Positions 4,458 to 56,157 of a stretch of DNA of 64,000 nt are shown here, piece by piece. Every line of letters begins with the position of its first letter. The first letter of the stretch is position 1. The notes below the pieces were generated by a model, which worked only from the letters and a program-made list of their open reading frames with translations, had not been told where the DNA came from and ran no database searches. Source of the DNA: Candidatus Aminicenantes bacterium (GTDB lineage: Bacteria > Acidobacteriota > Aminicenantia > UBA2199); assembly GCA_018262835.1 (NCBI GenBank), contig JADFDP010000001.1, positions 32,081-96,080 of the forward strand, written 5' to 3'. The position numbers and the translations under genes are program-made.

Positions 4458-5927
4458 TCACTCGCAGTAATACTGGATGACGCGGATGACCGCCTGTTCG
4501 CAGACCTTGCACAACGGCTTGAGGCCGCGGCTGAACATCAGGCAGTCGAGCATGGGCCGGAACAACCCCTTGGCCGCGTAGCCGGCGCCCTCGAAGGCTC
4601 CGACCTTGCCCTGGAAACGGCTCTTTTTGAAAAAAGCGTTCACTTCCAGGCCGTTCAGGCGCGACATCTCATCGCTCTGTGCTTGCAGGGCGTCGATTTC
4701 CGCCTTGGGGGCGTTGGCGCGCTTCAGGGCAGCGATCCTTTCGTTCGTCTCCTGGCGTTTTTTTTGGTAAACCCTTTCCATTTCTTCATATGCCGCTTTT
4801 TCCCACAGGGTGGGCACGGCGGTCTTCTTTGTCACCAGTTCCTTCCATTTCAGGTTTTTGGGGTCGAGCAGGGCGGTGACGTTGGGCTCGAGCGGCTCGA
4901 CTCCGACCGGGTAGAACTCGTTGTAGGCCACGGCCGAGGTGTAATATTCGTCGGCCAGGCCGCTGAACGAATGGCCGAACTCATGCATGCATAGATACTG
5001 CTGCCACTGGTCGTCGCTGGTGAAGGTGCAGTAGAGGTTGTAGATGCCGCCGCCGCCGTAGCGCGTCTGGTTGACCATGATCAGCAAGGCGTCGTAGGGG
5101 ACGTGGGCGGCGATGTCGCGCAGGGCGCGGTTGTCGTCGGTCAGCAGGTAACGCTCCGAGCCGAAGGAATCGAATTGGGCTCCCAGGACCGTGTTCTTGA
5201 ATTGACCGAAGCTGGGCTCGTCGCAGCCGCTTTCCGCTGAAGGCTTGAACAGGCCGGTGATATTGAAACGGTCCCTGTAGGTCTTGTAGGGTTCCTGGCT
5301 GGTAATGAGCTCACTGAAGCGTGCCAGGTCGCGCTTGAATTTTTCCTGCTCGGCCGCGGTATAACCTTCACCAACGATTGCCAGGTCAACCCTGTCGGCC
5401 GGAGCGCCGTTCTTGACCTGTTCGATCACCTGCACGTCGCCGGAGAGCTTCTCCTTGACGATGAACTGGTCGGCGGGATCGATCTCCCGGCCGAACAGGA
5501 GCTGGGGGAGGTTTTGCCGGTCGCGCAGCAGGATCTCCAGGCGGATCTTGTTTTTGGGATAAGGCAGGAGCAGTGTTTCGGAAAACGTTTTGCCGATCCC
5601 GTTCTGACCCGGATCGGTGGTCTTGTATTCGCCGAAATAACTGTCGAAGCCCTTGCTGTAGATCAGGGTGCCGGAAGCGGCATCGCTTATCCGCAGCTGG
5701 TAGCGGCCCAGGGCGAAGGGATCGATGGTGCGGCGCGGGTTGCCGGCCCAGGGGCCTTGCTGGAAAATCCGGTCAATCATGAACGTTTCTTCCTTGGCGT
5801 CGCCGGCGTGGAACATGTCCACGCGCAGGGTCCGATTCTCGAAAAAGGCAGCGAAATCGACATTGTCCGAGGCCTGTCCGGACAGTGAGCAAGCCAGCAA
5901 AAATAAAACCAGGATCGTTGCTTTCAT
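4458..5927 (-). CDS. M64-family (IgA-peptidase-like) zinc metallopeptidase
   Basis: HEFGHSFSGLADEY zinc motif. Signal peptide MKATILVLFLLACSLSG. ATG 5927 lies 7 nt after GGAGG. Confidence 0.8.
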   Translation of the reverse strand: MKATILVLFLLACSLSGQASDNVDFAAFFENRTLRVDMFHAGDAKEETFMIDRIFQQGPWAGNPRRTIDPFALGRYQLRISDAASGTLIYSKGFDSYFGEYKTTDPGQNGIGKTFSETLLLPYPKNKIRLEILLRDRQNLPQLLFGREIDPADQFIVKEKLSGDVQVIEQVKNGAPADRVDLAIVGEGYTAAEQEKFKRDLARFSELITSQEPYKTYRDRFNITGLFKPSAESGCDEPSFGQFKNTVLGAQFDSFGSERYLLTDDNRALRDIAAHVPYDALLIMVNQTRYGGGGIYNLYCTFTSDDQWQQYLCMHEFGHSFSGLADEYYTSAVAYNEFYPVGVEPLEPNVTALLDPKNLKWKELVTKKTAVPTLWEKAAYEEMERVYQKKRQETNERIAALKRANAPKAEIDALQAQSDEMSRLNGLEVNAFFKKSRFQGKVGAFEGAGYAAKGLFRPMLDCLMFSRGLKPLCKVCEQAVIRVIQYYCE

Positions 5928-6691: not shown

Positions 6692-7087
6692 ATGGATATG
6701 AAGATCACATTTCCGGGCGGGAAAAAAGTCAACGCCGAATACAACGGCTTCACCCATCAGACCGACCAGCCTTTGAATGCCGGCGGCGAGAACAGCGCCC
6801 CGTCGCCGTTCGAACTCTTCCTGGCCTCGCTGGGCGCCTGCGCCGGCTTCTATGTCCTGTCCTTCTGCCAGCAGCGCGGCATCGACATGACGGGGATCGA
6901 GCTGCGCCAGACCATGGCGCTCGATCCGCGGACACACCGGATCGGACAGATCGACATCGAGATCATCCTGCCCGCGGCTTTTCCTGAAAAATACCGGGCC
7001 GCCGTGGTGCAGGCGGCCCAGCTGTGCACGGTGAAAAAACACCTGGAAAATCCTCCCAAGTTCAGTTTATTCGCCACCGTCCGCTAA
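6692..7087 (+). CDS. OsmC/Ohr-family protein
   Basis: 131 aa with SPFELFLASLGACAG and AAQLCTVKK segments characteristic of the OsmC fold. RBS AAGGAGA lies upstream. Confidence 0.7.
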   Translation: MDMKITFPGGKKVNAEYNGFTHQTDQPLNAGGENSAPSPFELFLASLGACAGFYVLSFCQQRGIDMTGIELRQTMALDPRTHRIGQIDIEIILPAAFPEKYRAAVVQAAQLCTVKKHLENPPKFSLFATVR

Positions 7088-10469: not shown

Positions 10470-10550
10470 GTTGCCTCCTCAAGGTGTGGTTAGACGGCAG
10501 GAGGGAATAATTTTCTGAAAAGGATATGCAAATTAGATGAGATCGCAGTT

Positions 10551-10592
10551 AGGGGTTCAATACGAGATCGAGAGTGATCATATTGAACCCCT
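10551..10592. repeat. perfect 12-bp inverted repeat (AGGGGTTCAATA-N18-TATTGAACCCCT)
   Basis: Read directly. It lies in the divergent intergenic region between the vWA operon and gatE, 32 nt upstream of the gatE -35 box. Confidence 0.8.
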
Positions 10593-10623
10593 ACAATTGC
10601 CCCCGCTATCACCCTGGCGAACC

Positions 10624-10652
10624 TTGACACGCAGGCGGATCGGACATATAGT
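10624..10652 (+). promoter_or_regulatory. sigma-70-type promoter of gatED (TTGACA-N17-TATAGT)
   Basis: TTGACA at 10624-10629, a 17-nt spacer, then TATAGT at 10647-10652. This is 25 nt upstream of the gatE ATG. Confidence 0.6.
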
Positions 10653-10676: not shown

Positions 10677-12656
10677 ATGAAGAAACCTTTTGCGCCGCAA
10701 CAAAACTACGAAAAGAGCCGCAAGCGGGTCGGCTATACTCCGCGCAATGAAACCAAGGCCGCAACCTATGCCAGACTGGGATTCAAATGCGGCCTGGAAG
10801 TGCACCAGCAGCTGCAGACCGAAAAAAAGCTGTTTTGCCACTGCCCGGCCGGCAGGTACCACAACCTTGAGGAATACGACGCCGAGATCGTCCGCCACAT
10901 GCGGCCGACCCTTTCCGAGCTGGGCGAATACGACGGCACGGCCCTGATGGAATTCAAGACCCGCAAGATTGTTATCTACCGGATCAAGAACGAGACTACC
11001 TGCACCTATGAAATAGACGACACGCCTCCTTTCCTGGTCAACCGCCAGGCCCTGGAGATCGCCATGGAGGTGGCGCTGCTGCTCAAGTGCAACATCGTCG
11101 GCGAGTTCCACATCACGCGCAAGCAGTACCTGGACGGCAGCATCCCCACCGGTTTTCAGCGCACCGGCATCCTGGGTATCGAAGGGGAGATCCCGCTGTG
11201 TCATAAAAAAATCCGGATCATCCAATTGAGCGTTGAAGAAGATGCCTGCCGGGAAATTTCCGATGTCGGCCACATGCGCATCTATTCCACCGACCGCCTG
11301 GGCATGCCCCTGATCGAGACCGTGACCTACCCCGAAATGCTGACCCCCGCCGAAGCCGCCGAAGCCGCCCAGTATATCCGCTTCCTGGCGCGCAGCACCG
11401 GCAAGGTGCGCACCGGCATCGGCGCCGCCCGCGAGGACGTCAATGTCAGCATCACGGGCGGCACGCGCGTGGAGATCAAGGGGGTGGCCCATATCGCCTG
11501 GATTCCCGAGCTGGTACACAACGAGGCCTTCCGCCAGAAAGCGCTGCTGGAGATCCGCGAGGAACTGCACCGGCGCGTCGGGGACGGCAAGGATTGGAAA
11601 ATTGATTCCAAAGAAGTGGAAGCCGACGTCCTGGGCTGCGATTTCCCCCCCATCCGGGACGCGCGAAAAAAGAAATTGCACCTGCTGGCCGTCAACCTGC
11701 CGGGATTCGGGGGACTCCTCTCCTTTTTCACCCAGCCCGGAAAAATGTTCGCCGACGAGATCGGCGACCGCCTGAAGGTCATCGCTTGCCTGGAGAGGCC
11801 CAACATGGTCCATTGCGAGCAGCCGGAAAAGACGCTGGGCGAGGACGCCTGCCATTGGCTGCGCAAGACTTTAAAAGCGGGTGAAGACGATGCCCAGCTG
11901 TTGTTCTGGGCTGCAGCCGACGACATCAAGACCGCCCTGGAAACCATCGAGGAGCGCTGCCGCCTGGCTTTCCAGGGCGTGCCCAACGAGACGCGGAAAG
12001 GGCTGGCCGACGGCCGCACCATTTTCGAGCGGGTTCTGCCCGGCCCGGACCGTATGTATCCCGACACCGACTCGGCCCCGATCCCGGTCGAGGATGACCT
12101 GATCGAGCGCGTCCGTTCCGGCCTTCCCCCCGAGATCCACTACCGGCTCGGCCAGTTCAAGGCCTGGGGCGTCCCGGAAGACACTTTCGCTTTCCTGCTA
12201 AAATACAACCTGGCTCCCTGGCTCGAAAAGATCAGTAGCGCTTTCGGCGTCGAAGCGCGTTTTGTCTCCGTGGTCCTGGGGCACGTCCTGAAAAATCTGA
12301 TGGGCAGGCAGCAGGGCGGCGCGGGTTTCAATTTCCAGCGGCTCTACGACCTGTTCGGTTTCGTCCGCGAGCAGAAGCTGGACCATGAGATCATCAAGGT
12401 CATGCTGCCGGTGGTGTTCCAGCATCCAAACATGGATTTCGAGTCGGTGCTGACCACGGTAAACTTCAAGCGGCTAGGGCGCGAGGAGATCCTGGCCCCG
12501 CTGCCCATCCTGAAGGAAAAATTCAAGAAGACCGGCACATCCAAGGACCCTGCCGCTGCCACGCGCTGGATTGTAGGCAATTTGCGGAAACTGGCGCTGG
12601 GCAACATGCCCATGCGTGAAGTCACGGCGCAGCTGGCCAAGGGGAAAAAATCATGA
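10677..12656 (+). CDS. gatE: Glu-tRNA(Gln) amidotransferase subunit E (archaeal-type GatE)
   Basis: GatB/E N-terminal motif GLEVHQQLQTEKKLFCHCP. Its 659-aa length with an inserted domain is typical of GatE rather than the ~480-aa GatB. ATGA overlap with the gatD start. Confidence 0.85.
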   Translation: MKKPFAPQQNYEKSRKRVGYTPRNETKAATYARLGFKCGLEVHQQLQTEKKLFCHCPAGRYHNLEEYDAEIVRHMRPTLSELGEYDGTALMEFKTRKIVIYRIKNETTCTYEIDDTPPFLVNRQALEIAMEVALLLKCNIVGEFHITRKQYLDGSIPTGFQRTGILGIEGEIPLCHKKIRIIQLSVEEDACREISDVGHMRIYSTDRLGMPLIETVTYPEMLTPAEAAEAAQYIRFLARSTGKVRTGIGAAREDVNVSITGGTRVEIKGVAHIAWIPELVHNEAFRQKALLEIREELHRRVGDGKDWKIDSKEVEADVLGCDFPPIRDARKKKLHLLAVNLPGFGGLLSFFTQPGKMFADEIGDRLKVIACLERPNMVHCEQPEKTLGEDACHWLRKTLKAGEDDAQLLFWAAADDIKTALETIEERCRLAFQGVPNETRKGLADGRTIFERVLPGPDRMYPDTDSAPIPVEDDLIERVRSGLPPEIHYRLGQFKAWGVPEDTFAFLLKYNLAPWLEKISSAFGVEARFVSVVLGHVLKNLMGRQQGGAGFNFQRLYDLFGFVREQKLDHEIIKVMLPVVFQHPNMDFESVLTTVNFKRLGREEILAPLPILKEKFKKTGTSKDPAAATRWIVGNLRKLALGNMPMREVTAQLAKGKKS

Positions 12657-14035
12657 GCGACCTGTTCAAGGGCTACAAGGGGCCGGCGCTGGAGCTGCTG
12701 AAAAAATTCAACATCCGCGTCTGGAGCGACACCGCGGTCAAGACCACGCGCGGCGATTTCAAGGGCATCGTGCTGCCGCGCTCGGAAAACGACGACGACA
12801 CGCATATCGTGCTCAAGCTGATCACGGGTTACAACGTGGGCATCGCCGTCGAGAGCGTCCTGGACATCCAGGAGTTCGGCTACAAGGAAGCCCATTACAA
12901 GATCCCGGAAAAGCAGTTCCCGTTCTCCAAGGAAAAGAAGAACGTCAAGCTGCTGGGCACGGGCGGGACCATCGCCTCACGCCTCGACTACCGCACCGGC
13001 GCCGTTATCCCCGCCTTCTCGCCCGGCGAGCTCTACGGCGCCGTCCCCGAGCTGGCCGATATCTGCAACCTCGCAACCGAGAAGCTCTTCGCCGTGTTCA
13101 GCGAGAACATGGGCCCCGAGCAGTACAAGGGGTTGGCCAAGGCCATCGGCGAGGAGATCCGCAAGGGCACCGACGGCATCGTCATCGGCCACGGCACCGA
13201 CACCATGCACCACACCGCGGGCATCCTCTCCTTCATGGTGCAGAATTCGCCGGTGCCCATCGTCATGGTCGGCTCGCAGCGCTCCTCGGACCGGCCGTCT
13301 TCGGACGCGGCCCTGAACCTGATGCACGCCACCAAGACCGCCGCCGATTCCGACATCGCCGAGATCATGGTCTGCATGTTCGGCCCCACCTCGGATGAGT
13401 ACGGCCTGCTGCACCGCGGCACGCGCGTGCGCAAGATGCATTCTTCCTACCGCTCCACCTTCCGCACCATCGGCGACATCCCCCTGGCCATGGTCGACCG
13501 CAAGAAGATCACGCCGCTGCGCCAGGACTACAAGCGCCGGCGCAACGACCGCAACGTGGACATCCTGCCGTTCTTCGAGGAGAAGGTGGGGATGCTCTAT
13601 TACTACCCCAACATGCAGCCCGACATGATCGATGCCATGGTCGACCACGGCTACCGGGGGATCGTCATCGCCGGCACCGGGCTGGGCCACGTCAACAAGC
13701 CGCTCTACCCGGCCATCGTGCGCGCGGCGGAAAAGGGCGTGACCATCTATATGACCGTGCAGACGCTCTGGGGCTACGTGCACATGTTCGTCTACGACAC
13801 CGGCCGCGACCTGATGGCCAAGGGCATCATCCCGGCCGAGAACATGCTCCCGGAAGTGGCCTACGTCAAGCTGGCCTGGGCATTAGGCCAAACAACGGAT
13901 CTCGACAAAGTGAAACAATTGATGCTGACCCCCATCGCTGGCGAGATCACCGAGCGCGAGCCTTATAATGGATACTTAATATTCCAGGGCGGCATCCCCG
14001 AGGTCGAAGAGTTTATCCGGAAATTTCACAAGTAA
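12653..14035 (+). CDS. gatD: Glu-tRNA(Gln) amidotransferase subunit D (archaeal-type GatD, asparaginase-like)
   Basis: GatD-specific N-terminal domain (GIVLPRSENDDDTHIVLKLITGYNVGI). Type-I asparaginase motifs follow (LLGTGGTIASRLDYRTG, GHGTDTM). Translationally coupled to gatE. Confidence 0.85.
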   Translation: MSDLFKGYKGPALELLKKFNIRVWSDTAVKTTRGDFKGIVLPRSENDDDTHIVLKLITGYNVGIAVESVLDIQEFGYKEAHYKIPEKQFPFSKEKKNVKLLGTGGTIASRLDYRTGAVIPAFSPGELYGAVPELADICNLATEKLFAVFSENMGPEQYKGLAKAIGEEIRKGTDGIVIGHGTDTMHHTAGILSFMVQNSPVPIVMVGSQRSSDRPSSDAALNLMHATKTAADSDIAEIMVCMFGPTSDEYGLLHRGTRVRKMHSSYRSTFRTIGDIPLAMVDRKKITPLRQDYKRRRNDRNVDILPFFEEKVGMLYYYPNMQPDMIDAMVDHGYRGIVIAGTGLGHVNKPLYPAIVRAAEKGVTIYMTVQTLWGYVHMFVYDTGRDLMAKGIIPAENMLPEVAYVKLAWALGQTTDLDKVKQLMLTPIAGEITEREPYNGYLIFQGGIPEVEEFIRKFHK

Positions 14036-14198: not shown

Positions 14199-14768
14199 AT
14201 GACGAATGATGAAATAACCGGGTTGGTGAGCGAATGCCTCGCAGGTAAGAAAGAATCTTACGAGCCGATAGCCCGTTATTTCCAGGGGAAAATATACCGC
14301 ATTTGCTACCAAATCCTCGGGACCCCACAAGATGCTGAGGATGCTGCCATGGACGTTTTTATCAAAGCCTATCGATCTTTGACCGGTTACAATTCACAGT
14401 ATACTTTTTCCTCTTGGATATCCAGGATCGCTGTCAACCACTCCATCAGCGTATTTAGACGGAGGAAATTAGAAAATGATTATTTTACTCAACAGGTTTC
14501 AAACCAAGTGCTATCGACAGACAATCAATGCCCGGAGAAAGTTTTTATAAGCGATTGCCGGGAATCAGACCTTTCGGATGCCCTCGAAACCCTATCGGTC
14601 AAATTCCGCACAGCACTGATGCTGAAATACCAGGAAAACCTTTCCTACGATCAAATCGGAAAAATCCTCGATATACCGGTCAATACGGTTGGAAGTTTGA
14701 TCCTGCGAGGCAAAAAGGATTTAAGAAAAAAATTGAGCAATACCCAAACCCTAAACAAGGGGGCGTAA
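14199..14768 (+). CDS. ECF-type RNA polymerase sigma factor
   Basis: Sigma-70 region 2 (YFQGKIYRICYQILGTPQDAEDAAMDVFIKAY). Region 4 HTH (LSYDQIGKILDIPVNTVGSLILRGKKDLR). 189 aa. Confidence 0.85.
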   Translation: MTNDEITGLVSECLAGKKESYEPIARYFQGKIYRICYQILGTPQDAEDAAMDVFIKAYRSLTGYNSQYTFSSWISRIAVNHSISVFRRRKLENDYFTQQVSNQVLSTDNQCPEKVFISDCRESDLSDALETLSVKFRTALMLKYQENLSYDQIGKILDIPVNTVGSLILRGKKDLRKKLSNTQTLNKGA

Positions 14769-14770
14769 AA

Positions 14771-15277
14771 ATGAGTGGAATGTGTTATGATGAAACGCTG
14801 TATGCCGTATTTGTAGATAATGAAGCAGGGCCGGATCAACGGCGCGAAATCAAAACGCACCTCGATACATGTCCGGCATGCCGTGAAATAGTACGCGCGT
14901 TAGAAGCCGAAAATGAACAATTGAAAAAAGCGTTCAAATGGAACCACCCTACACCGGATTTGGTACCGGCCATTATGGAAAAACGGGATTCTGCCGCTTT
15001 TCCCTCAAAACCACAAAAGATAGTAGTCTTAAAACACGGGCAAAGCAACTGGCCGCATGTATTTGAATGGGGCCTGGCAACCGCTGCATCATTTCTGGTC
15101 ATAGGTCTTCTATATCTTTTTTTACTCTCCCCCAACCATACGCCACCTGCCCCCGAAACGCCTGAAAAAAACGTAATACTTTGCTCCGCCAGAGTGGCAG
15201 GAAAAGAAGCCAAAAGCTATATTTATGAAGAAGAAAATCGGGCTACCCAATTCATTTGGTTGGAGAAAGAAAAATGA
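14771..15277 (+). CDS. anti-sigma factor (zf-HC2 type, single-pass membrane)
   Basis: Starts 3 nt after the sigma-gene stop. H-x3-C-x2-C motif HLDTCPACRE. One TM helix (LATAASFLVIGLLYLFLL). Confidence 0.75.
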   Translation: MSGMCYDETLYAVFVDNEAGPDQRREIKTHLDTCPACREIVRALEAENEQLKKAFKWNHPTPDLVPAIMEKRDSAAFPSKPQKIVVLKHGQSNWPHVFEWGLATAASFLVIGLLYLFLLSPNHTPPAPETPEKNVILCSARVAGKEAKSYIYEEENRATQFIWLEKEK

Positions 15278-15324
15278 AAAAAAACTAGCCGAAAAGAACA
15301 CAAAAACATATATGGAGGTAACAA

Positions 15325-16779
15325 ATGAAAAAATGTTTTAAATCTATGATGTGTACGGTGCTTGTCAAACTTGTTTATTTCTCGATTGCCGTCGCAGTAG
15401 CGTTATGGGCATCAACCGATACACTGTTGGCTTCCGACGACATAGTGGTTCAACTCCGTTTCTACCAGGGACTCAATGAAAACGGAAGCAGCTCCGGGGT
15501 CATCGTAAGTTCCTATTACCAGAAAAAAACCTCGGACGATACGGTCTTTTCTTTCGTGGAAATAGACAAGGAAACCCAAAAACTTAAAGAAATCTACAAA
15601 CTAAAAGGTGTTAAACCCATTGGCAATTATGACCTTGTACTGAAAAACAACAAAGCAATAAAAATTTATACTACTATCGAAATGAGTGGAAAGAAATTGG
15701 GTTTCAGGCTGGCCCCTGTGCTCGACCAAAAGGATCGATTCGGGATCAAAATATTCACCGGCGAGGATGAAAAATTGCTCATGGAATCTGATATCGTCAT
15801 CCCAGAGGAGAAAACAGCCGTATTGGGTTTCAAAGATTCCGAAGAGAAAATCTATTTCGTCGCCTTTAACAGGAAAAAAGAATCGGACTTTTCAATTTTA
15901 AATAACTCCAAAACAGTTGAATCGCCAAAACTTATCAATAGAGTCGAACCGACTTACCCCACCGTATTGGCGAAAGAAAAATTGCAGGGCGAAGTCGTAT
16001 TGATCGGCCAAACCGACCTGGAAGGAAAAGTGATCGATGCGCAAGTGCTAAAAGGGCATCCTTTGCTTAATGCAATGACCCTGGCCGCAGTCCGAAAATG
16101 GGTATATACTCCCTGGAAAATCGATGGCATTACAAAGACAGTGGATTTCTCCATGATTTTCATGTACAGGCAAACCAGAAGCACAGGTGAGGCTTTTAAA
16201 AAAGACTGCGATGCGGTTATGAAGAAATATAACTCGTTGTTGAAAGAATACAAGCCCCAAAACGGGATCCCCCGGATAATGGAATTGGTTACGGTGATTG
16301 GCGAGAAAAACCCTCCGGATGCTCCGGATAGTCCAAAAGAGCCCCAAGAACCCACCTTAGCCCAGCAGCTGCATGCACAGACTGTGGAATCCCCGAAATT
16401 GATCCGACGCCCGGAACCCGTCTACCCAGAAAAAGCCCTGCAATCGAAAATACAAGGAAATGTGGTGCTGCAACTGGTGACGGACAACGCCGGGAAAACA
16501 GTAGCAGTAAAAGCACTGAGCGGTCACCCGCAGCTGGTTGAAGCTGCAACCGCAAATATCTTGAAATGGAAATATACCCCGTGGATAATCGATGGCGCGG
16601 TAAAACCGGTGGAAGCCAATATCATAGTGATTTTTCGACTGAAAATAAAAACGGCCGATGAAATCGATGCACAAGTCGATGCGGCTCTAAAAGCCAATGC
16701 GGATGTCCTGGGAAAACGAAAACCCGCCGGGCAAATTCCACGCCTTATGGAAGTCGTCGTCGTTGAAGGCGAAGAATAG
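15325..16779 (+). CDS. secreted/membrane-anchored protein with two tandem TonB C-terminal-like modules
   Basis: N-terminal hydrophobic anchor. Two 131-aa repeats (nt 15913-16305 and 16381-16773). Each begins TVESPKLI(N/R)R.EP.YP, as TonB_C domains do, and each ends IPR(I/L)ME.V.V.GE. Confidence 0.7.
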   Translation: MKKCFKSMMCTVLVKLVYFSIAVAVALWASTDTLLASDDIVVQLRFYQGLNENGSSSGVIVSSYYQKKTSDDTVFSFVEIDKETQKLKEIYKLKGVKPIGNYDLVLKNNKAIKIYTTIEMSGKKLGFRLAPVLDQKDRFGIKIFTGEDEKLLMESDIVIPEEKTAVLGFKDSEEKIYFVAFNRKKESDFSILNNSKTVESPKLINRVEPTYPTVLAKEKLQGEVVLIGQTDLEGKVIDAQVLKGHPLLNAMTLAAVRKWVYTPWKIDGITKTVDFSMIFMYRQTRSTGEAFKKDCDAVMKKYNSLLKEYKPQNGIPRIMELVTVIGEKNPPDAPDSPKEPQEPTLAQQLHAQTVESPKLIRRPEPVYPEKALQSKIQGNVVLQLVTDNAGKTVAVKALSGHPQLVEAATANILKWKYTPWIIDGAVKPVEANIIVIFRLKIKTADEIDAQVDAALKANADVLGKRKPAGQIPRLMEVVVVEGEE

Positions 16780-16880: not shown

Positions 16881-16953
16881 TTTTGAATTTCCTCTTTTCT
16901 CCATTGTGTCTGGGGCGGTTGCCGTGTCGTGATGACCCCCAGCGCCCCTCAGC

Positions 16954-17052
16954 GCCGGCGAGATCACCGAGCGTGAGCCCTATAATGGATATTTAATATT
17001 CCAGGGCGGCATCCCAGAGGTCGAAGAGTTCATCCGCAAGTTCCATAAATAG
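16954..17052 (+). pseudogene. detached copy of the last 99 nt of gatD (remnant B)
   Basis: Encodes AGEITEREPYNGYLIFQGGIPEVEEFIRKFHK*, identical in amino acids to gatD 13937-14035. There are 12 nucleotide differences, all silent (including TAA to TAG). In-frame stops lie directly upstream, so it is not part of a gene. Confidence 0.9.
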
Positions 17053-37926: not shown

Positions 37927-39318
<1,392 letters not shown>

Positions 39319-39435
39319 GGCCTCACCTCGGTAAAGGCCAATTGTAGCGCAAAACCGCCCTGCGGGCAAATTCCTTTCCCTTTGAATTCATCGTTTTCTA
39401 TTGACTTCTGAAACGATTCACTTCAAAATGCGGCC

Positions 39436-50372: not shown

Positions 50373-50621
50373 ATGAAAAAAGCGCTGCTTCTGCTGATCC
50401 AAACGTACAAAATAACGCTTTCGCCAATGCTCGGCCGGCATTGTCGCTTTTTGCCCACCTGTTCCGCCTACACCCATGAGGCGGTGGAAAAACACGGCGC
50501 TCTCAAGGGCGCGGTCCTTGGTCTCAAGAGAATTCTCAAATGTCATCCTTTTCATGCCGGAGGGCATGACCCGGTTCCCGAAATATTCGAGGTGAAATCA
50601 AGATGGATACAAAAAAACTAA
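50373..50621 (+). CDS. yidD: membrane protein insertion efficiency factor YidD
   Basis: [35 protein letters not shown]...[13 protein letters not shown]. Confidence 0.9.
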
Positions 50622-52378
50622 TCCTGGCCATTGTCCTTTCCGTGACGGTTTTGCTGGTCTACCAGTATTTTTTCATGCCCAAACCGGCGGTCCAGGGTCA
50701 GGCGCCCCTGAATGCCGGAGCGGCGCAGCCGGGAAAATCCGAACCGGCAGCTGAGACCAAAACGACGGCGGCTCCCGACATCGGCGCAATCATGGGAGCA
50801 GACGAACCTGCGGCCGATCAGAAAAGCGAAGCGATCCTCCCGGCCGTGCAGCAGGACAGGATGTCCGCCGCTGAACAGACCGTCACCGTGGACAACGCTT
50901 TGTTCACCGCCGTGTTCACCAACCGCGGCGCCGGCCTGACGTCGTTCGTGCTGAAAAAGTACAAGGATGACGCCAAAAAGCCCATGGACCTGGTGTCGCG
51001 CAGCGCCAAGGAATCGAGCTTTTACCCCTTCTACTTTTTTTCTGAAAAGGACGATTTTTCTAAGATCCTCAACCAGGCCCTTTTTCAGTACCAGGGCGAG
51101 ACCACGGTGCGCCTGAACGGCCGCGGGCAAAAAGAAATTGTTTTTGAATTCGCCGACCTGGCCCAGAACCTGCAGGCCACCAAAAAATTCATTTTCAGCG
51201 CCGACAGCTACCTGATCCGCCTCGATTTCCAGGTCAGCCGGAACGGGCAGGTCATCGACGCCCTGCCCGTGGTTTTCGGACCCGACCTGGAGAACAACGA
51301 CAGCGGCGACCGTTCCATGATGATGAACCTGAAGATCGCCGCCTATGCCAATGAAAAACTGGAAACCGTCGAATTCGCCAAGCAAAAGACCGTGCCCCAG
51401 GCCGGAAAATCCTTTGAAAAGGCCGCCGGTGAAAAAGGTTCCGGTTTTTTCTGGGCGGCCTATGAGACGACCTATTTCGCCGCCGTATTCAAAACCGACC
51501 CGCTCCGATCCCGGCTTTCCTACCAGGTGATCAAACAGCCGCTGGCCAAGAACCAGGCCAAGCTTTTTTCCTACATGATCGTCACCAACCCGACCGCGCT
51601 TTTCATCGGCCCCAAGGATGAAAAGGTCCTGGCCTCCGTGGAGAAGGAATTCCCCGATCTGAACCGGATCATCGATTACGGCTGGTTCGGTGCCATCGCC
51701 AAGATCATGCTCAAAGGGATCGTTCTCATCCATGGCTTCCTCCCCAACTACGGCTGGGCCCTGATCCTTTTCACCCTGTTCCTGAAGCTGATCCTTTTTC
51801 CCCTGACCTATTCTTCCAGCGTCTCCATGGCCAAGATGCAGAGCCTGCAGCCCAAGATGAAGGCCATCAAGAAAAAGTACAAGAATACCAAGGACATGGA
51901 GCAGCGCAAGCTGATGAACATGGAGATCATGGCCCTCTACAAGCAGGAAAAGGTCAACCCGGCCGGCGGCTGCCTGCCGATCCTGCTGCAGCTGCCGATC
52001 CTTTTCGGATTTTTCCGCCTGCTCTCGGTTTCCATCAATGTCCGCCATGAGCCCTGGATCCTCTGGATCACCGACCTTTCGAAAAAAGACCCGTATTATG
52101 TCCTGCCCATCCTGATGGGCGTAACCCAGTTCATCCAGCAGCGCATGACCCCCTCGGGCGGCGATGAAACCCAGAAAAAACTGATGTACATCATGCCGGT
52201 GGTCATGACCGTCATGTTCGCCTCCTTCCCCAGTGGCTTGAACCTGTACTGGTGCTTCTCCAACGTGCTGCAGATCGGCCAGCAGCACCTCATCAACGAG
52301 AAGATCCACAAAAAGAAGAAGGAAGAGGAAAAGGAGATCAAGGTCCTGAAAAGAAAAAAAGGAGCCAAAGAGAAATGA
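50603..52378 (+). CDS. yidC: membrane protein insertase YidC
   Basis: N-terminal TM, a large periplasmic domain, and a conserved C-terminal 5-TM core ([19 protein letters not shown]...MQSLQPKM...[17 protein letters not shown]). Basic tail. Confidence 0.9.
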
Positions 52379-52995
52379 CCGACAAAAAGGAATTCGTCGC
52401 AAATTCTCTGAAAGAAGCCATCCAGAAAGCAGCCGAAGATTTCGGCATCGAAGAGGAAAAGTTAAAATACCGCATCATCACCGAAAAAACGAAATATTTC
52501 GGGCACAAGCAGAGGGAGATCTTCATCGAGGCCTGGCGCTCCGACGGCAGCGAGCAGCAGGGGCTGGAGGATTTCATCAAATTGCTGATCGAAGAAATGA
52601 AAATGGACCTGCGTTTCGAGCTGGAAAGCAAAAGCGAATTCCTGCGGGTCACATTTTCCGGCGAAGACTACAAGCTGATGCTGTTTCAGAACGGCAACCT
52701 GCTCAACGCCGTCCAATACCTGCTGAATCGGCTCTTTGCCGACGAGATCGGCAAGAAGATCTATTGCGAATGTGAGAATTACCGCAAGAAAAAGGAAGTG
52801 GAGCTGAGCACCCAGGCCCACCGGTACGCCCGCCAGGTCCGGCGCAGCGGCAAGTCCATCGAACTGCCCGAGCTCAACCCTTTTGAACGGCGCATCATCC
52901 ACATGACCATCAACAAATACATGGACCTGGAGTCGAAAAGCGACGGCGACAATTTTTTAAAGGTCATCACCATCCGCAAAAAGCCGAATGGATGA
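52375..52995 (+). CDS. jag: Jag/KhpB RNA-binding protein (Jag_N-KH-R3H)
   Basis: ATGA overlap with the yidC stop. R3H motif LNPFERRIIHMTI. Conserved position after yidC. Confidence 0.8.
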   Translation: MTDKKEFVANSLKEAIQKAAEDFGIEEEKLKYRIITEKTKYFGHKQREIFIEAWRSDGSEQQGLEDFIKLLIEEMKMDLRFELESKSEFLRVTFSGEDYKLMLFQNGNLLNAVQYLLNRLFADEIGKKIYCECENYRKKKEVELSTQAHRYARQVRRSGKSIELPELNPFERRIIHMTINKYMDLESKSDGDNFLKVITIRKKPNG

Positions 52996-54346
52996 GGATG
53001 CGATCGTAGCCCTGGCCACGCCGCCGGGGCAGGCCGGCATTGCCGTTGTCAGGATCTCCGGGAGCCAGAGCGAAGCCATCGTCAGGAAGATCGTCCGGCC
53101 GCTGCCGGCCAGAGTGCAAGCCCGCCACAGCTACCACGGTTTCATCCGCGACCGGGCCCGGCGCATTGATGAATGCCTGGCCGTCGTTTTCAAGGCTCCG
53201 CGCTCCTACAGCGGCGAGGATATGGCGGAAATTTCGATGCATTCCAACCTGTTTGTCGTTGAGGAGGTCATCCGGCTGATCTGCGCCTGCGGCGCCAGGC
53301 TGGCCCTGCCCGGGGAATTTACCTATCGCGCTTTCAGGAACGGCAAACTGGACCTGCTGCAGGCCGAGGCGGTCAACGACCTGATCCGGGCCAATTCCCG
53401 GGCCGGCGCTCTCATGCAATTCAACAACCTGGAAGGCCGACTCTCCAAAGCCGTGGCCCAACTCCGTGCCGTCCTGCTGCAGGAGGCGGTGCGCATCGAG
53501 ACCCGCATCGAATTCGCCGAGGACCAGCATCTGGAAGAAACCGCGGCCGGAGGCGATCTGGCCGCCGCGGCCGCCGTCCTGGAAAAGATCCTGGCGCAAA
53601 GCCGCTTCACCGAAATCCTGAACCGGGGCCTGCATGTGGTCATCGCCGGCCGGGTCAATGTGGGCAAATCCTCTTTGTTCAACGCCCTGCTGCTGAAAGA
53701 GCGGTCGATCATCTCCGCCCTTCCCGGCACCACCCGCGATTACATCCAGGAAAGCCTGGTTCTGAACGGCTTCCCCTTCCATATCACCGACATGGCCGGC
53801 ATCCGCGCCGCTTCGGGAGACGACATCGAAAATCAGGGCATGCAGCGCAGCCTGGCCAAGATCGCCCAGGCCGACGCCGTGATATTCATGGTGGACGCTT
53901 CGCAGCCGTTGGCAGAAACCGACAGGGAGATCTATGCATTGCTGGCTGCCAAAAAGCGGCTCCTGCTGGCCAACAAGAGCGACCAGGCGCGGGCCGGGAT
54001 CGTGCGGAACATCCGGGCCGCCTTTCCCGGGGAAACCGTGCACCTGGTATCGGCCCGAAACGGGAAAAACCTGGACACGGCGGTGAATTTCATGAAGGGC
54101 GTGTCGCGGCAGATGCCGGACCCCTCGGGGCAGACCATGGTGAATTTCAGGCAGAAGAACCTGCTGGAAAAGCTTTTGAATCAAATGAATCGGATCGGGG
54201 AAATGCAGGCCCTTGGCCTGGAAGCGCCCGAATTGATCGCCGAGGAGATCCGCCGGGGACTCGACCTGATCGGCGAGTTGACCGGAACGATCGGCCCCCG
54301 GGACATTCTCCAGGGCGTGTTCGCCGCCTTCTGCATCGGCAAATGA
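52988..54346 (+). CDS. mnmE: tRNA uridine-5-carboxymethylaminomethyl modification GTPase MnmE
   Basis: DAIVALATPPGQAGIAVVRISG N-terminus. G1 GRVNVGKSSL. C-terminal FCIGK. Confidence 0.9.
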   Translation: MDEDAIVALATPPGQAGIAVVRISGSQSEAIVRKIVRPLPARVQARHSYHGFIRDRARRIDECLAVVFKAPRSYSGEDMAEISMHSNLFVVEEVIRLICACGARLALPGEFTYRAFRNGKLDLLQAEAVNDLIRANSRAGALMQFNNLEGRLSKAVAQLRAVLLQEAVRIETRIEFAEDQHLEETAAGGDLAAAAAVLEKILAQSRFTEILNRGLHVVIAGRVNVGKSSLFNALLLKERSIISALPGTTRDYIQESLVLNGFPFHITDMAGIRAASGDDIENQGMQRSLAKIAQADAVIFMVDASQPLAETDREIYALLAAKKRLLLANKSDQARAGIVRNIRAAFPGETVHLVSARNGKNLDTAVNFMKGVSRQMPDPSGQTMVNFRQKNLLEKLLNQMNRIGEMQALGLEAPELIAEEIRRGLDLIGELTGTIGPRDILQGVFAAFCIGK

Positions 54347-56157
54347 AGATCATCGTCATCGGGGCCGGGCACGCCGGAATGGAAGCGGCATATGCTGCGA
54401 TGAAAATGGGTGCCGAAACCATTTTGCTGACCATGCACCTGGAGACCATCGCCCAGATGTCCTGCAACCCCTCCATCGGTGGCATTGCCAAGGGTCACCT
54501 GGTCAAGGAGATCGATGCCCTGGGCGGGATCATGCCCCGGGCCGCCGATGCCACGGGCATCCATTTCAAGGTGCTGAACCGCAGCAAGGGGCCGGCGGTG
54601 CGGGCCACGCGCACCCAGAACGACAAGGTTGCCTACCGCAATTATCTGAAAAGTTTCCTGGAAAAGGCGGCGAACCTCAGCCTGTACCAGGCCATGGCCG
54701 GCCAGATCGTGGTGCGCCATGGCCGGGCCTGCGGCGTCAGGCTGACCCATGGGGAAGTCCTCGCTGCCGATGCGGTGATCGTCTGTTCCGGGACCTTCCT
54801 GGGCGGGCGCATATTCATCGGCAGCGCTTCCTACGCCGCCGGCCGGGCCAACGAGCCTCCTTCCCTGCTGCTGGCGGAAAATATCCGCGACCTGGGTTTT
54901 GAGATGCTGCGCTTGAAGACCGGGACGCCCATGCGGCTGCACGCCGACAGCATTCTTTGGGCAAAATTCACCCCCCAGCCCGGCGACGAGCCGCCGCTCC
55001 CATTTTCCATGTACACCCGCCGGCAGGTGAAAAACCGGGTGTGCTGTTACCTGGGGCACACTACCCCGGAGGTCGGACGCATCATCCGCGAAAACCTGCA
55101 ATTGTCGCCTTTGTATTCCGGAAAGATCCAGGGCATCGGTCCCCGTTATTGCCCTTCCATCGAGGACAAGATCGTCAAGTTCCCCGGCCGCGAAAGGCAC
55201 CATTTTTACCTGGAGCCGGAAGGACTGGACAACAAGGAAATATACGTTAACGGCCTATCGTCCAGCCTGCCGGTGGAAATTCAAAAGCTGATCCTGCAAG
55301 CCATCCCCGGACTGGACAAGGCGCGGATCATGCGCCCGGCCTACGCCATCGAGTACGATGCCATTCAGCCCACCCAATTGCGCGCCAGCCTGGAAAGCCG
55401 GCAGATCGGGAATCTGTTTTTTGCCGGCCAGGTCAACGGCACATCGGGTTATGAGGAAGCCGCCGGCCAGGGGCTCATGGCCGGGATCAACGCCGTGCTC
55501 AGGGTCCGGGGCGAAGCGCCGTTCATTCTGGACCGTGAGCAGGCCTATATCGGTGTTATGGTGGACGATATCGTCCACGGCGGCGTCGATGAGCCGTACC
55601 GCTTGTTCACGGCGCGGGCCGAATACCGCCTGCAGCTCAGGGAAGACAACGTCTTCGAGCGCCTGGGCGGGCACGCTCTCCGGCTGGGTTTGGTCTCGCG
55701 AATGGACCATGACCGGGAGATGCGCAAATTATCAGGACGCCGGCATCTGATCAAGGAACTGTCCAAGGCCAGGGCGCTTGTTGACGGCAAGTCGCAATCA
55801 CTCTTTAAAATACTGCAGCGGCCGGGCATGAACTTCGCCGGCCTGGAGAAACTGGTCGGGCAGCCATTGCTGAAAAAAAAGGACTTGAGCGATATCTCCT
55901 ACATCGAAGCCAACGTCAAGTATGAAGGATACATCGATATCCAAAAACGGGAAGTCGGCAAGATGAGAAAAATGCAAACAACGGCCATTCCCGCCGACCT
56001 GGATTTCAGCGCCGTCTCTGGCCTTTCCCGCGAAATCAAGCAAAAACTTTCAAGGTTGCATCCGGCCACCCTGGGCGAGGCGGCGCGCGTTCCCGGCGTC
56101 ACCCCGGCCGCCATCAACGCCATCAGCATCCACCTGACTTTAAAATACAGGCCATGA
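54343..56157 (+). CDS. mnmG: tRNA uridine 5-carboxymethylaminomethyl modification enzyme MnmG (GidA)
   Basis: VIGAGHAGMEAA FAD motif, MSCNPSIGGIAKGHLVKEIDALGG, GPRYCPSIEDK. ATGA overlap with mnmE. Confidence 0.9.
   Translation: MKIIVIGAGHAGMEAAYAAMKMGAETILLTMHLETIAQMSCNPSIGGIAKGHLVKEIDALGGIMPRAADATGIHFKVLNRSKGPAVRATRTQNDKVAYRNYLKSFLEKAANLSLYQAMAGQIVVRHGRACGVRLTHGEVLAADAVIVCSGTFLGGRIFIGSASYAAGRANEPPSLLLAENIRDLGFEMLRLKTGTPMRLHADSILWAKFTPQPGDEPPLPFSMYTRRQVKNRVCCYLGHTTPEVGRIIRENLQLSPLYSGKIQGIGPRYCPSIEDKIVKFPGRERHHFYLEPEGLDNKEIYVNGLSSSLPVEIQKLILQAIPGLDKARIMRPAYAIEYDAIQPTQLRASLESRQIGNLFFAGQVNGTSGYEEAAGQGLMAGINAVLRVRGEAPFILDREQAYIGVMVDDIVHGGVDEPYRLFTARAEYRLQLREDNVFERLGGHALRLGLVSRMDHDREMRKLSGRRHLIKELSKARALVDGKSQSLFKILQRPGMNFAGLEKLVGQPLLKKKDLSDISYIEANVKYEGYIDIQKREVGKMRKMQTTAIPADLDFSAVSGLSREIKQKLSRLHPATLGEAARVPGVTPAAINAISIHLTLKYRP

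Follow-up and report, generated by a model that had tools for sequence, protein, structure and literature searches.

The stretch of DNA analysed here (hereafter the window; 64,000 nucleotides, G000:C72:32081-96080) was taken from contig JADFDP010000001.1 of a Candidatus Aminicenantes bacterium, a metagenome-assembled genome (MAG) of 2.73 Mb in 160 contigs that is 81% complete. It carries an overlapping pair of genes, gatE and gatD, for the two subunits of GatDE, a tRNA-dependent amidotransferase family described from archaea. The operon is intact and, from its sequence signals, appears to be expressed. On balance, it probably provides an auxiliary route to Gln-tRNA(Gln), and not the sole source, in a host that also encodes a canonical glutaminyl-tRNA synthetase (GlnRS). 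In the genomes surveyed, GatDE was almost always found beside GlnRS or beside the bacterial amidotransferase GatCAB. Reviews describe GatDE as restricted to archaea and have invoked it, together with the archaeal A1:U72 pair of tRNA(Gln), as the reason that GlnRS was never taken up by archaea (PMC9499178). Full-text literature searches found no paper on a bacterial GatDE; in bacterial MAGs, proteins of this kind are already given the name GatE by the NCBI annotation pipeline. All absences given below are subject to MAG incompleteness, and taxon names are those given by the submitters.

The GatE and GatD proteins

GatE, GatD and GatB were identified by the NCBIfam equivalog cut-offs, and domains were assigned with Pfam. 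Open reading frames were found at 10677-14035, where the initial annotation had placed an overlapping GatE and GatD pair, and both products passed the equivalog cut-offs (GatE: NF003107, 473 bits, cut-off 456, and TIGR00134, 424 bits, cut-off 319.55; GatD: TIGR02153, 509 bits, cut-off 324, and NF003217, 510 bits, cut-off 310). The motifs quoted in that annotation (GLEVHQQL...LFCHCP, TGGTIASR and HGTDTM) were all present in the translations. Models for GatB gave 55-138 bits against the window GatE, with cut-offs of 315-680 (best scores, 94-138 bits for cut-offs of 315-338, the top one being 138 bits for a cut-off of 338). Profile searches assigned the 659-residue protein to GatE and not to GatB, and the 460-residue protein to GatD and not to an ordinary asparaginase.

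The match to PF02934 (GatB_N) was spread over residues 37-477 of GatE for just 277 model positions, which implies a domain inserted in the cradle of the protein. The alignment with GatE of Methanothermobacter thermautotrophicus (2D6F_C) covered residues 31-604 and ran unbroken through the insert; that with GatE of Pyrococcus abyssi was also near full length. The AlphaFold model (predicted local distance difference test, pLDDT, 86; predicted template modelling score, pTM, 0.82) had 1ZQ1_C and 2D6F_D as its best fold matches (target-normalised TM 0.85 and 0.82; 518-541 columns), followed by weak matches to aspartyl-tRNA synthetase (AspRS). Domain span, alignment and fold thus agree on the insertion that had been proposed from the sequence. 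The Pfam GAD domain (PF02938) was undetected in the window GatE and was detected in relatives.

Across 40 bacterial and archaeal GatE sequences, 72 columns were invariant, including E41, H43, R148, K149, D153, E187, E188, D206, N256, S258, E266 and K268; these cradle residues we take to be those of the catalytic and Mg/ATP sites. The C-terminus of GatE was helical in the model and matched PF02637 weakly (16.7 bits, E 0.007, below the cut-off of 27), and the NCBIfam GatE alignments stopped at model positions 567-583 of 622-630. Scores for PF02637 were normal in other subclades of the same GatDE group.

GatD was resolved by Pfam into GatD_N (PF18195) followed by the N- and C-terminal asparaginase domains (PF00710 and PF17763), which bears out the earlier description of a GatD-specific N-terminal domain joined to an asparaginase domain. 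It aligned over its full length with P. abyssi GatD (1ZQ1_A, 395 bits), with GTGGTIASR, HGTDTM, SDRPSSDA and VRKMH conserved, and by this alignment the asparaginase catalytic set Thr/Thr-Asp/Lys is intact.

Charging of tRNA(Gln) and tRNA(Asn) in the host

The initial annotation had proposed an archaeal-style division of labour, with direct charging of tRNA(Asn) and GatDE supplying Gln-tRNA(Gln). The host genome speaks against it. A glnS gene lies on the same contig as gatE, in tandem with gltX (Table 1). Its product scored 766 bits against GlnRS of Pseudomonas aeruginosa (5BNZ) and 729 bits against GlnRS of 1GSG/1QTQ, and the active-site motifs TRFPPEPNG, YPMYD, HSICTLEF and QQIEF around the Gln pocket were kept. 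A Glu-charging enzyme in the guise of GlnRS is not supported, given the high scores against solved bacterial GlnRS and the retained Gln-pocket motifs.

The only glutamyl-tRNA synthetase (GluRS) found in the host carried Arg at the position aligned with R358 of the Thermus thermophilus enzyme, and in a tree it grouped with the Arg-type and not with the GluRS2-like paralogue. This residue reportedly reads C36 and marks discriminating enzymes (Sekine and colleagues, 2001). Neither GatB nor GatC was found in the host genome, the only matches to GatB being GatE itself, and the only GatA-like match was a sub-threshold amidase (210 bits, cut-off 481). A canonical GlnRS together with only a discriminating-type GluRS implies that Gln-tRNA(Gln) does not come solely or primarily from GatDE; the suggested non-discriminating gltX was not found in this genome.

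One bacterial AspRS, one asparaginyl-tRNA synthetase (AsnRS) and three AsnB-family genes above cut-off were also found, and a gene of the glutamine synthetase family is present on contig C76. The latter disposes of tRNA-dependent Gln synthesis as compensation for a missing glutamine synthetase. Synthesis of Asn on tRNA is likewise not favoured, given the three AsnB-family genes and the class-wide presence of AsnRS. The asnS gene of the window was confirmed (NF003037), and its proximity to gatE and gatD, read earlier as a partnership, has no special meaning because 142 of the 151 genomes surveyed in the class have AsnRS, whether their lineage carries GatCAB or GatDE.

The only tRNA(Gln) found in the host has the anticodon UUG and, read with a 7-bp acceptor stem, U1-A72, G2-C71, G3-C70 and G73, which is the E. 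coli-like set of GlnRS identity elements. U1-A72 and G73 were found in tRNA(Gln) of 12 genomes of the class, irrespective of pathway. A similarity search of five genomes for a second tRNA(Gln), archaeal-like or with CUG, returned exactly one tRNA(Gln)(UUG) per genome, a search that would miss a very divergent tRNA. An odd tRNA-Glu(CUC) with U1-A72 proved to be an ARAGORN call drawn with an acceptor stem of 8 bp; with a 7-bp stem it has G1-U72 and A73 and is unremarkable. ARAGORN also reported a 96-nt 'tRNA-His(GTG)' at G000:C3:4196-4291, whose extra arm is very long and whose acceptor stem is poor; a spurious call or a degenerate tRNA-like element is the likely explanation.

Occurrence of GatDE, GlnRS and GatCAB in the class

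The survey of the class covered 151 genomes, and GluRS and tRNA(Gln) were examined in smaller sets of them. GatE was found in 93 genomes, belonging to five of the 12 families (f1, f3, f8, f11 and f12), and the distribution of GlnRS (100 genomes) tracked that of GatE: 85 of the 93 GatE genomes also had GlnRS, and the other eight are 76-93% complete. GatB (42 genomes) occupied the complementary lineages, that is f2, f4-f7, f9, genus g40 of f3, part of f8 and one genome each of f1 and f11, and these lacked GlnRS with four exceptions. GatE and GatB occurred together in three genomes only, and GatB was found in none of the 26 genomes of the genus to which the host belongs.

The GluRS complement followed the same division. 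The five GatB genomes checked (G028, G035, G039, G081 and G054; L108-L117) each had two GluRS paralogues, one with Arg and the other with N, G or E at the R358 position, which from sequence resembles the GluRS1/GluRS2-like split of Helicobacter. In the GatE plus GlnRS genomes checked, the host and four of five relatives had a single Arg-type GluRS, and the fifth, G151, kept both paralogues. The single GluRS was sister to the Arg-type clade and was encoded in a gltX-glnS tandem, an arrangement common to f1, f3, f11 and f12 (G041, G067, G085, G116). Relatives that are 92-97% complete showed the same inventory as the host.

Some lineages (family f10, a part of f8 and a scattering of f1 genomes) had GlnRS only. 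The two f10 genomes that consist of a single contig contained GlnRS and neither GatE nor GatB, and GatDE is therefore dispensable. Apparent intermediates were also found: G151 combines two GluRS with GlnRS and GatE, and G063 and G122 combine GatB, GatE and GlnRS. The sequence of tRNA(Gln) was essentially identical in all three pathway states. This pattern suggests that GluRS2 and GatCAB were replaced by GlnRS and GatDE lineage by lineage, with GatDE sometimes lost later.

GatE of f3 (L006 and L007, from G036 and G026) was 47-48% identical to the window GatE and fell in a different subclade, so that two or more GatDE lineages exist in the class, as a result of replacement or of independent acquisition.

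Distribution beyond the class and phylogeny

One genome per species was scanned, and close relatives of the pair were found at no fewer than 594 loci, in at least 594 species of more than ten phyla; loci were studied in detail for the best 80. These 80 were all in bacterial records (Aminicenantes, Bacteroidales, Ignavibacteria, Zixibacteria, Cloacimonadota, Calditrichota and Clostridia), the order gatE-gatD was kept in about 70 of them, and GatD was 69-91% identical across them. Neither glnS nor gltX was found within 6 kb of gatE-gatD in the 80 loci, and no other neighbouring gene was conserved across phyla. Carriers include the cultured Clostridium tagluense A121, Clostridiales oral taxon 876 F0540 and Perlabentimonas gracilis M08_MB, and closed chromosomes. 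Of 12 GatDE genomes from other phyla, 11 had GlnRS and two had GatB, the twelfth genome being one with GatB; in none of the 12 was GatDE the only apparent Gln route, and most had a single Arg-type GluRS.

Trees were built for both subunits, those of GatE by quick searches rooted on the long GatB branch and that of GatD by a careful run with an arbitrary choice of outgroup. The window GatE fell in a tight clade (support 100) nested in a larger group (support 100) with named members from Aminicenantes, Desulfaltia, Clostridiales and Planctomycetota. Sister to the whole group was a Heimdall/Asgard clade (Shimodaira-Hasegawa approximate likelihood-ratio test, SH-aLRT, 97-99), with the solved archaeal enzymes further out. 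The GatD tree was congruent, with the bacteria monophyletic (100/100) and the Heimdall type as their sister (94/89). The term archaeal-type, applied earlier to the operon, therefore stands in so far as this is a genuine member of the family described from archaea, carried in a bacterial chromosome; it does not denote a recent archaeal import, the named members of the branch being bacterial except for one genome labelled as archaeal.

That genome (L171, CP070751.1; source of the basal member P0495) is a complete 5.16-Mb chromosome labelled 'Thermoplasmata archaeon', and its GatE is basal in the otherwise bacterial group. YidC was not found in it. Either the label is right and the group may not be purely bacterial, or the genome may be unusual. 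In two basal members, one from a genome labelled Planctomycetota (L152:3334-8434) and the other from this Thermoplasmata-labelled chromosome (L171:2732-7938), a glnA gene for a protein of 501-504 aa adjoins gatE and gatD, an arrangement that may point to a functional link with glutamine metabolism or nitrogen status.

Residency and selection

Four other species of the genus share the gene order upstream of and through the operon (the genes at 4458-5927 and 6692-7087, a VIT-vWA gene, a vWA gene, gatE and gatD). The G+C content across gatE-gatD was about 0.60, like that of the upstream genes, and fell to 0.42-0.49 only 3' of gatD. Identity to the four congeners was 71-82% for GatE and 91-95% for GatD. 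Pairwise ratios of nonsynonymous to synonymous substitution (dN/dS) against the congeners were 0.17-0.29 for gatE and 0.08-0.14 for gatD, with 0.21-0.41 for the neighbouring vWA gene, and both gatE and gatD are under purifying selection. A chimeric contig or a decaying import is excluded because synteny is kept and dN/dS is low. The description of the operon as domesticated was upheld by this synteny and by the presence of the pair in five of the 12 families, and within the Aminicenantes-type family the operon appears, from gene order and sequence, to have been inherited vertically.

Synonymous divergence was lower in gatD (dS 0.37-0.42) than in gatE and the vWA neighbour (0.61-0.95) for the same genome pairs (window versus L129-L131), and in L029 GatD was 91% identical to the window protein with GatE at 70%. 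The low dS of gatD could be due to strong constraint at the codon level or to recombination limited to gatD.

A probable role for GatDE beside GlnRS

From the conserved catalytic residues and the fold, GatD is predicted to hydrolyse Gln or Asn to release ammonia, and GatE to phosphorylate the gamma-carboxyl group of the Glu on Glu-tRNA(Gln) and to amidate it, yielding Gln-tRNA(Gln). The substrate would be the bacterial-type tRNA(Gln) with U1-A72 and G73. As an auxiliary system, the enzyme might clear Glu-tRNA(Gln) left by residual mischarging or act as a second route or fidelity step; it might also uphold the supply of Gln-tRNA(Gln) when free glutamine is scarce. Most GatDE plus GlnRS genomes checked keep just an Arg-type GluRS, a complement that would reduce the supply of Glu-tRNA(Gln) and not abolish it.

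Several points weigh against an auxiliary role of this kind. If the Arg358-type GluRS discriminates, the canonical substrate Glu-tRNA(Gln) would hardly be made, and the role would then depend on a low level of mischarging, something that E. coli-like bacteria withstand although they have no amidotransferase. The first pair of the host tRNA(Gln) is U1-A72, and the D-loop-reading tail of GatE is divergent (PF02637, E 0.007); a passage of a review that cites Oshikane 2006 has archaeal GatDE reading A1:U72 and the D-loop (PMC9499178). The U1-A72 tRNA and the divergent tail together imply that substrate recognition has changed, leaving room for a different substrate. Lastly, a second GluRS or further tRNAs could be missing from the host genome at its present completeness. 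A broader formulation, in which bacterial GatDE does not supply Gln-tRNA in the textbook manner and is a conserved accessory of GlnRS-based decoding in anaerobes, whether as a trans-acting corrector of Glu-tRNA(Gln), a nitrogen-linked Asn/ammonia route or a retargeted enzyme, is put forward tentatively, as a possibility we hold with less confidence than the auxiliary route itself; if true, it would give a physiological role not seen before to a family that has been regarded as exclusively archaeal.

A change of substrate is a serious alternative, because the host lacks the usual source of Glu-tRNA(Gln), GluRS2 or a non-discriminating GluRS, and the part of GatE that reads the tRNA is divergent. 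Under it, GatDE would have been neofunctionalised towards Asp-tRNA(Asn), towards an aminoacyl-tRNA used outside translation, or towards a link with nitrogen status through glutamine synthetase. The lack of the archaeal A1-U72 pair in the host tRNA(Gln) fits such a change, as do the unusual conservation of GatD across phyla (69-91%), the glnA genes beside gatE and gatD in two basal members, and the observation that GatDE was never the only apparent Gln route in the genomes from other phyla, the exceptions in the class being compatible with incomplete assemblies. The catalytic cradle, however, and all the family-invariant residues are unchanged; the universal AsnRS of the class and the three AsnB-family genes make tRNA-dependent Asn synthesis unneeded; no conserved neighbour across the 80 loci suggests another pathway; and the five genomes searched contain no extra tRNA(Gln)-like gene. 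Taken together, we regard a changed substrate as rather unlikely.

It is improbable that the operon is an evolutionary leftover, that is, that GatDE replaced GatCAB before GlnRS came and is now redundant and being lost. The GlnRS-only lineages (f10, part of f8, scattered f1) and the apparent intermediates G151, G063 and G122 could be read in this way, but purifying selection is stronger on the two genes (dN/dS 0.08-0.29 overall) than on their vWA neighbour, reading frames are intact across at least 594 species, and GatD is 91-95% identical within the genus. The archaeal-style arrangement, in which GatDE is fed by a non-discriminating GluRS as the host's route to Gln-tRNA(Gln), AsnRS acts directly, and both GatCAB and GlnRS are replaced, is very improbable: it would agree with the lack of GatB and GatC in the genome and of GatB in the genus, with the presence of AsnRS and with the near-exclusion of GatE and GatB in the class, but it conflicts with the GlnRS encoded on the same contig, the gltX-glnS tandem across four families, the Arg-type sole GluRS, the complete set of GlnRS identity elements in tRNA(Gln) and the class-wide AsnRS. 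An archaeal fragment mis-assembled or mis-binned in a bacterial MAG can be set aside, for although MAGs can be chimeric and G+C drops sharply just 3' of gatD, the pair matches its upstream genes in G+C, follows the vWA genes in four other species, and is also found in cultured isolates and closed bacterial chromosomes, with bacteria as its nearest relatives.

Comparison with known systems

The solved archaeal enzymes (M. thermautotrophicus, 2D6F; P. abyssi, 1ZQ1) share with the auxiliary GatDE proposed here the two subunits, the domain set, the catalytic motifs and the adjacency of the genes. The window pair differs in sequence (33-38% identity for GatE, about 55% for GatD), in forming a separate branch that is sister to Heimdall-type Asgard sequences, in the divergent YqeY-like tail of GatE and in its gene order (gatE then gatD, with an ATGA overlap). 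The host differs in having GlnRS, an Arg358-type bacterial GluRS in place of the archaeal non-discriminating GluRS, and U1-A72 in tRNA(Gln) where archaea have A1-U72.

The reaction expected of the window GatDE is performed in bacteria such as Helicobacter pylori by GatCAB with GluRS2 or a non-discriminating GluRS (PMC2777447). Sister lineages of the same class use that system, with GatB, two GluRS paralogues and no GlnRS. GatB shares the cradle domain with GatE, but the window GatE scores far below the GatB cut-offs, and the window system has no GatA or GatC partner, an asparaginase-type GatD taking that part. In the class, GatCAB goes without GlnRS whereas GatDE goes with it. Deinococcus, Thermus and Bdellovibrio keep an amidotransferase in spite of having GlnRS and AsnRS; there the amidotransferase is GatCAB, and tRNA-dependent Asn biosynthesis with a non-discriminating AspRS accounts for its retention (PMC4206432). 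They offer a precedent for an amidotransferase with a role besides the sole supply of Gln-tRNA. In the present case, by contrast, the enzyme is GatDE, of which the archaeal members are not known to act on Asp-tRNA(Asn), and AsnB-family genes are present.

What is new is the replacement, within one class, of GatCAB and GluRS2 by GatDE and GlnRS, with tRNA(Gln) unchanged and GatDE never the sole route. A large and almost wholly bacterial branch undercuts the view of GatDE as an "archaeal signature", and GatDE and GlnRS are compatible in one cell, as they coexist in nearly every genome examined; a bacterial GatDE would have to act on a U1-A72 tRNA(Gln). The question thus raised is what purpose a tRNA-dependent amidotransferase serves where direct charging is available, and cultured carriers (C. 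tagluense, P. gracilis) make it testable. The sister relation to Heimdall-type Asgard sequences bears on the transfer of Gln-decoding machinery between the domains.

Organization of the locus and neighbouring genes

The coordinates of the features are collected in Table 1. The reading frames of gatE and gatD overlap in ATGA, within aaaaaatcATGAgcg, with AAGGGGA just 5' as the ribosome-binding site as read from the sequence, and gatD appears to be translationally coupled to gatE through this overlap. GAGGA lies 5 nt ahead of the gatE ATG. The near-consensus bacterial promoter that had been noticed ahead of the operon was recovered; the promoter scan gave 2 sites for a shuffle mean of 1.4, the call being made from the consensus match alone. 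The inverted repeat upstream is near-perfect, with an internal spacer of the form GATC...GATC, and may be a candidate operator. The bacterial genes listed earlier for the same window, yidC, mnmE and mnmG, passed their family cut-offs.

Table 1. Coordinates of the gatE-gatD operon, its putative signals and other genes discussed in the text (window positions unless a contig is given)
Feature	Position	Strand	Remarks
gltX	G000:C72:313-1737		551 bits; directly 5' of glnS; same contig, outside the window
glnS	G000:C72:1909-3492		755 bits, cut-off 425.8; about 40 kb upstream of gatE
Inverted repeat GTTAGGGGTTCAATA ... TATTGAACCCCTAC	10549-10594	.	divergent intergenic region between the vWA operon and the gatE promoter
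Putative sigma-70-type promoter, TTGACA-17-TATAGT	10624-10652	+	11/12 consensus positions; 24 nt 5' of the gatE ATG
gatE	10677-12656	+	659 aa; amidotransferase/kinase subunit; cradle, inserted AspRS-like and helical domains, divergent YqeY-like tail
gatD	12653-14035	+	460 aa; asparaginase-like amidase subunit with GatD-specific N-terminal domain
Displaced copy of the gatD 3' end	16946-17051	+	last ~106 nt (13929-14034), 88% identical
asnS (asparagine--tRNA ligase)	37927-39369	-	NF003037, 676 bits, cut-off 414
yidC	50603-52378		above family cut-off
mnmE	52988-54346		above family cut-off
mnmG	54343-56157		above family cut-off

Directly 3' of gatD lies the block of low G+C (0.42-0.49; window 14199-16779, 14.2-16.8 kb), which was not found at the same position in any of the four congeners. 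Encoded in it are an extracytoplasmic function (ECF) sigma factor (14199-14768) and a putative anti-sigma protein, together with a protein of 484 aa that contains two TonB_C-like repeats. The block is bracketed by the gatD 3' end and its displaced copy, 3 kb apart, a repeat pair that looks like a recombination or insertion scar at the 3' end of the operon.

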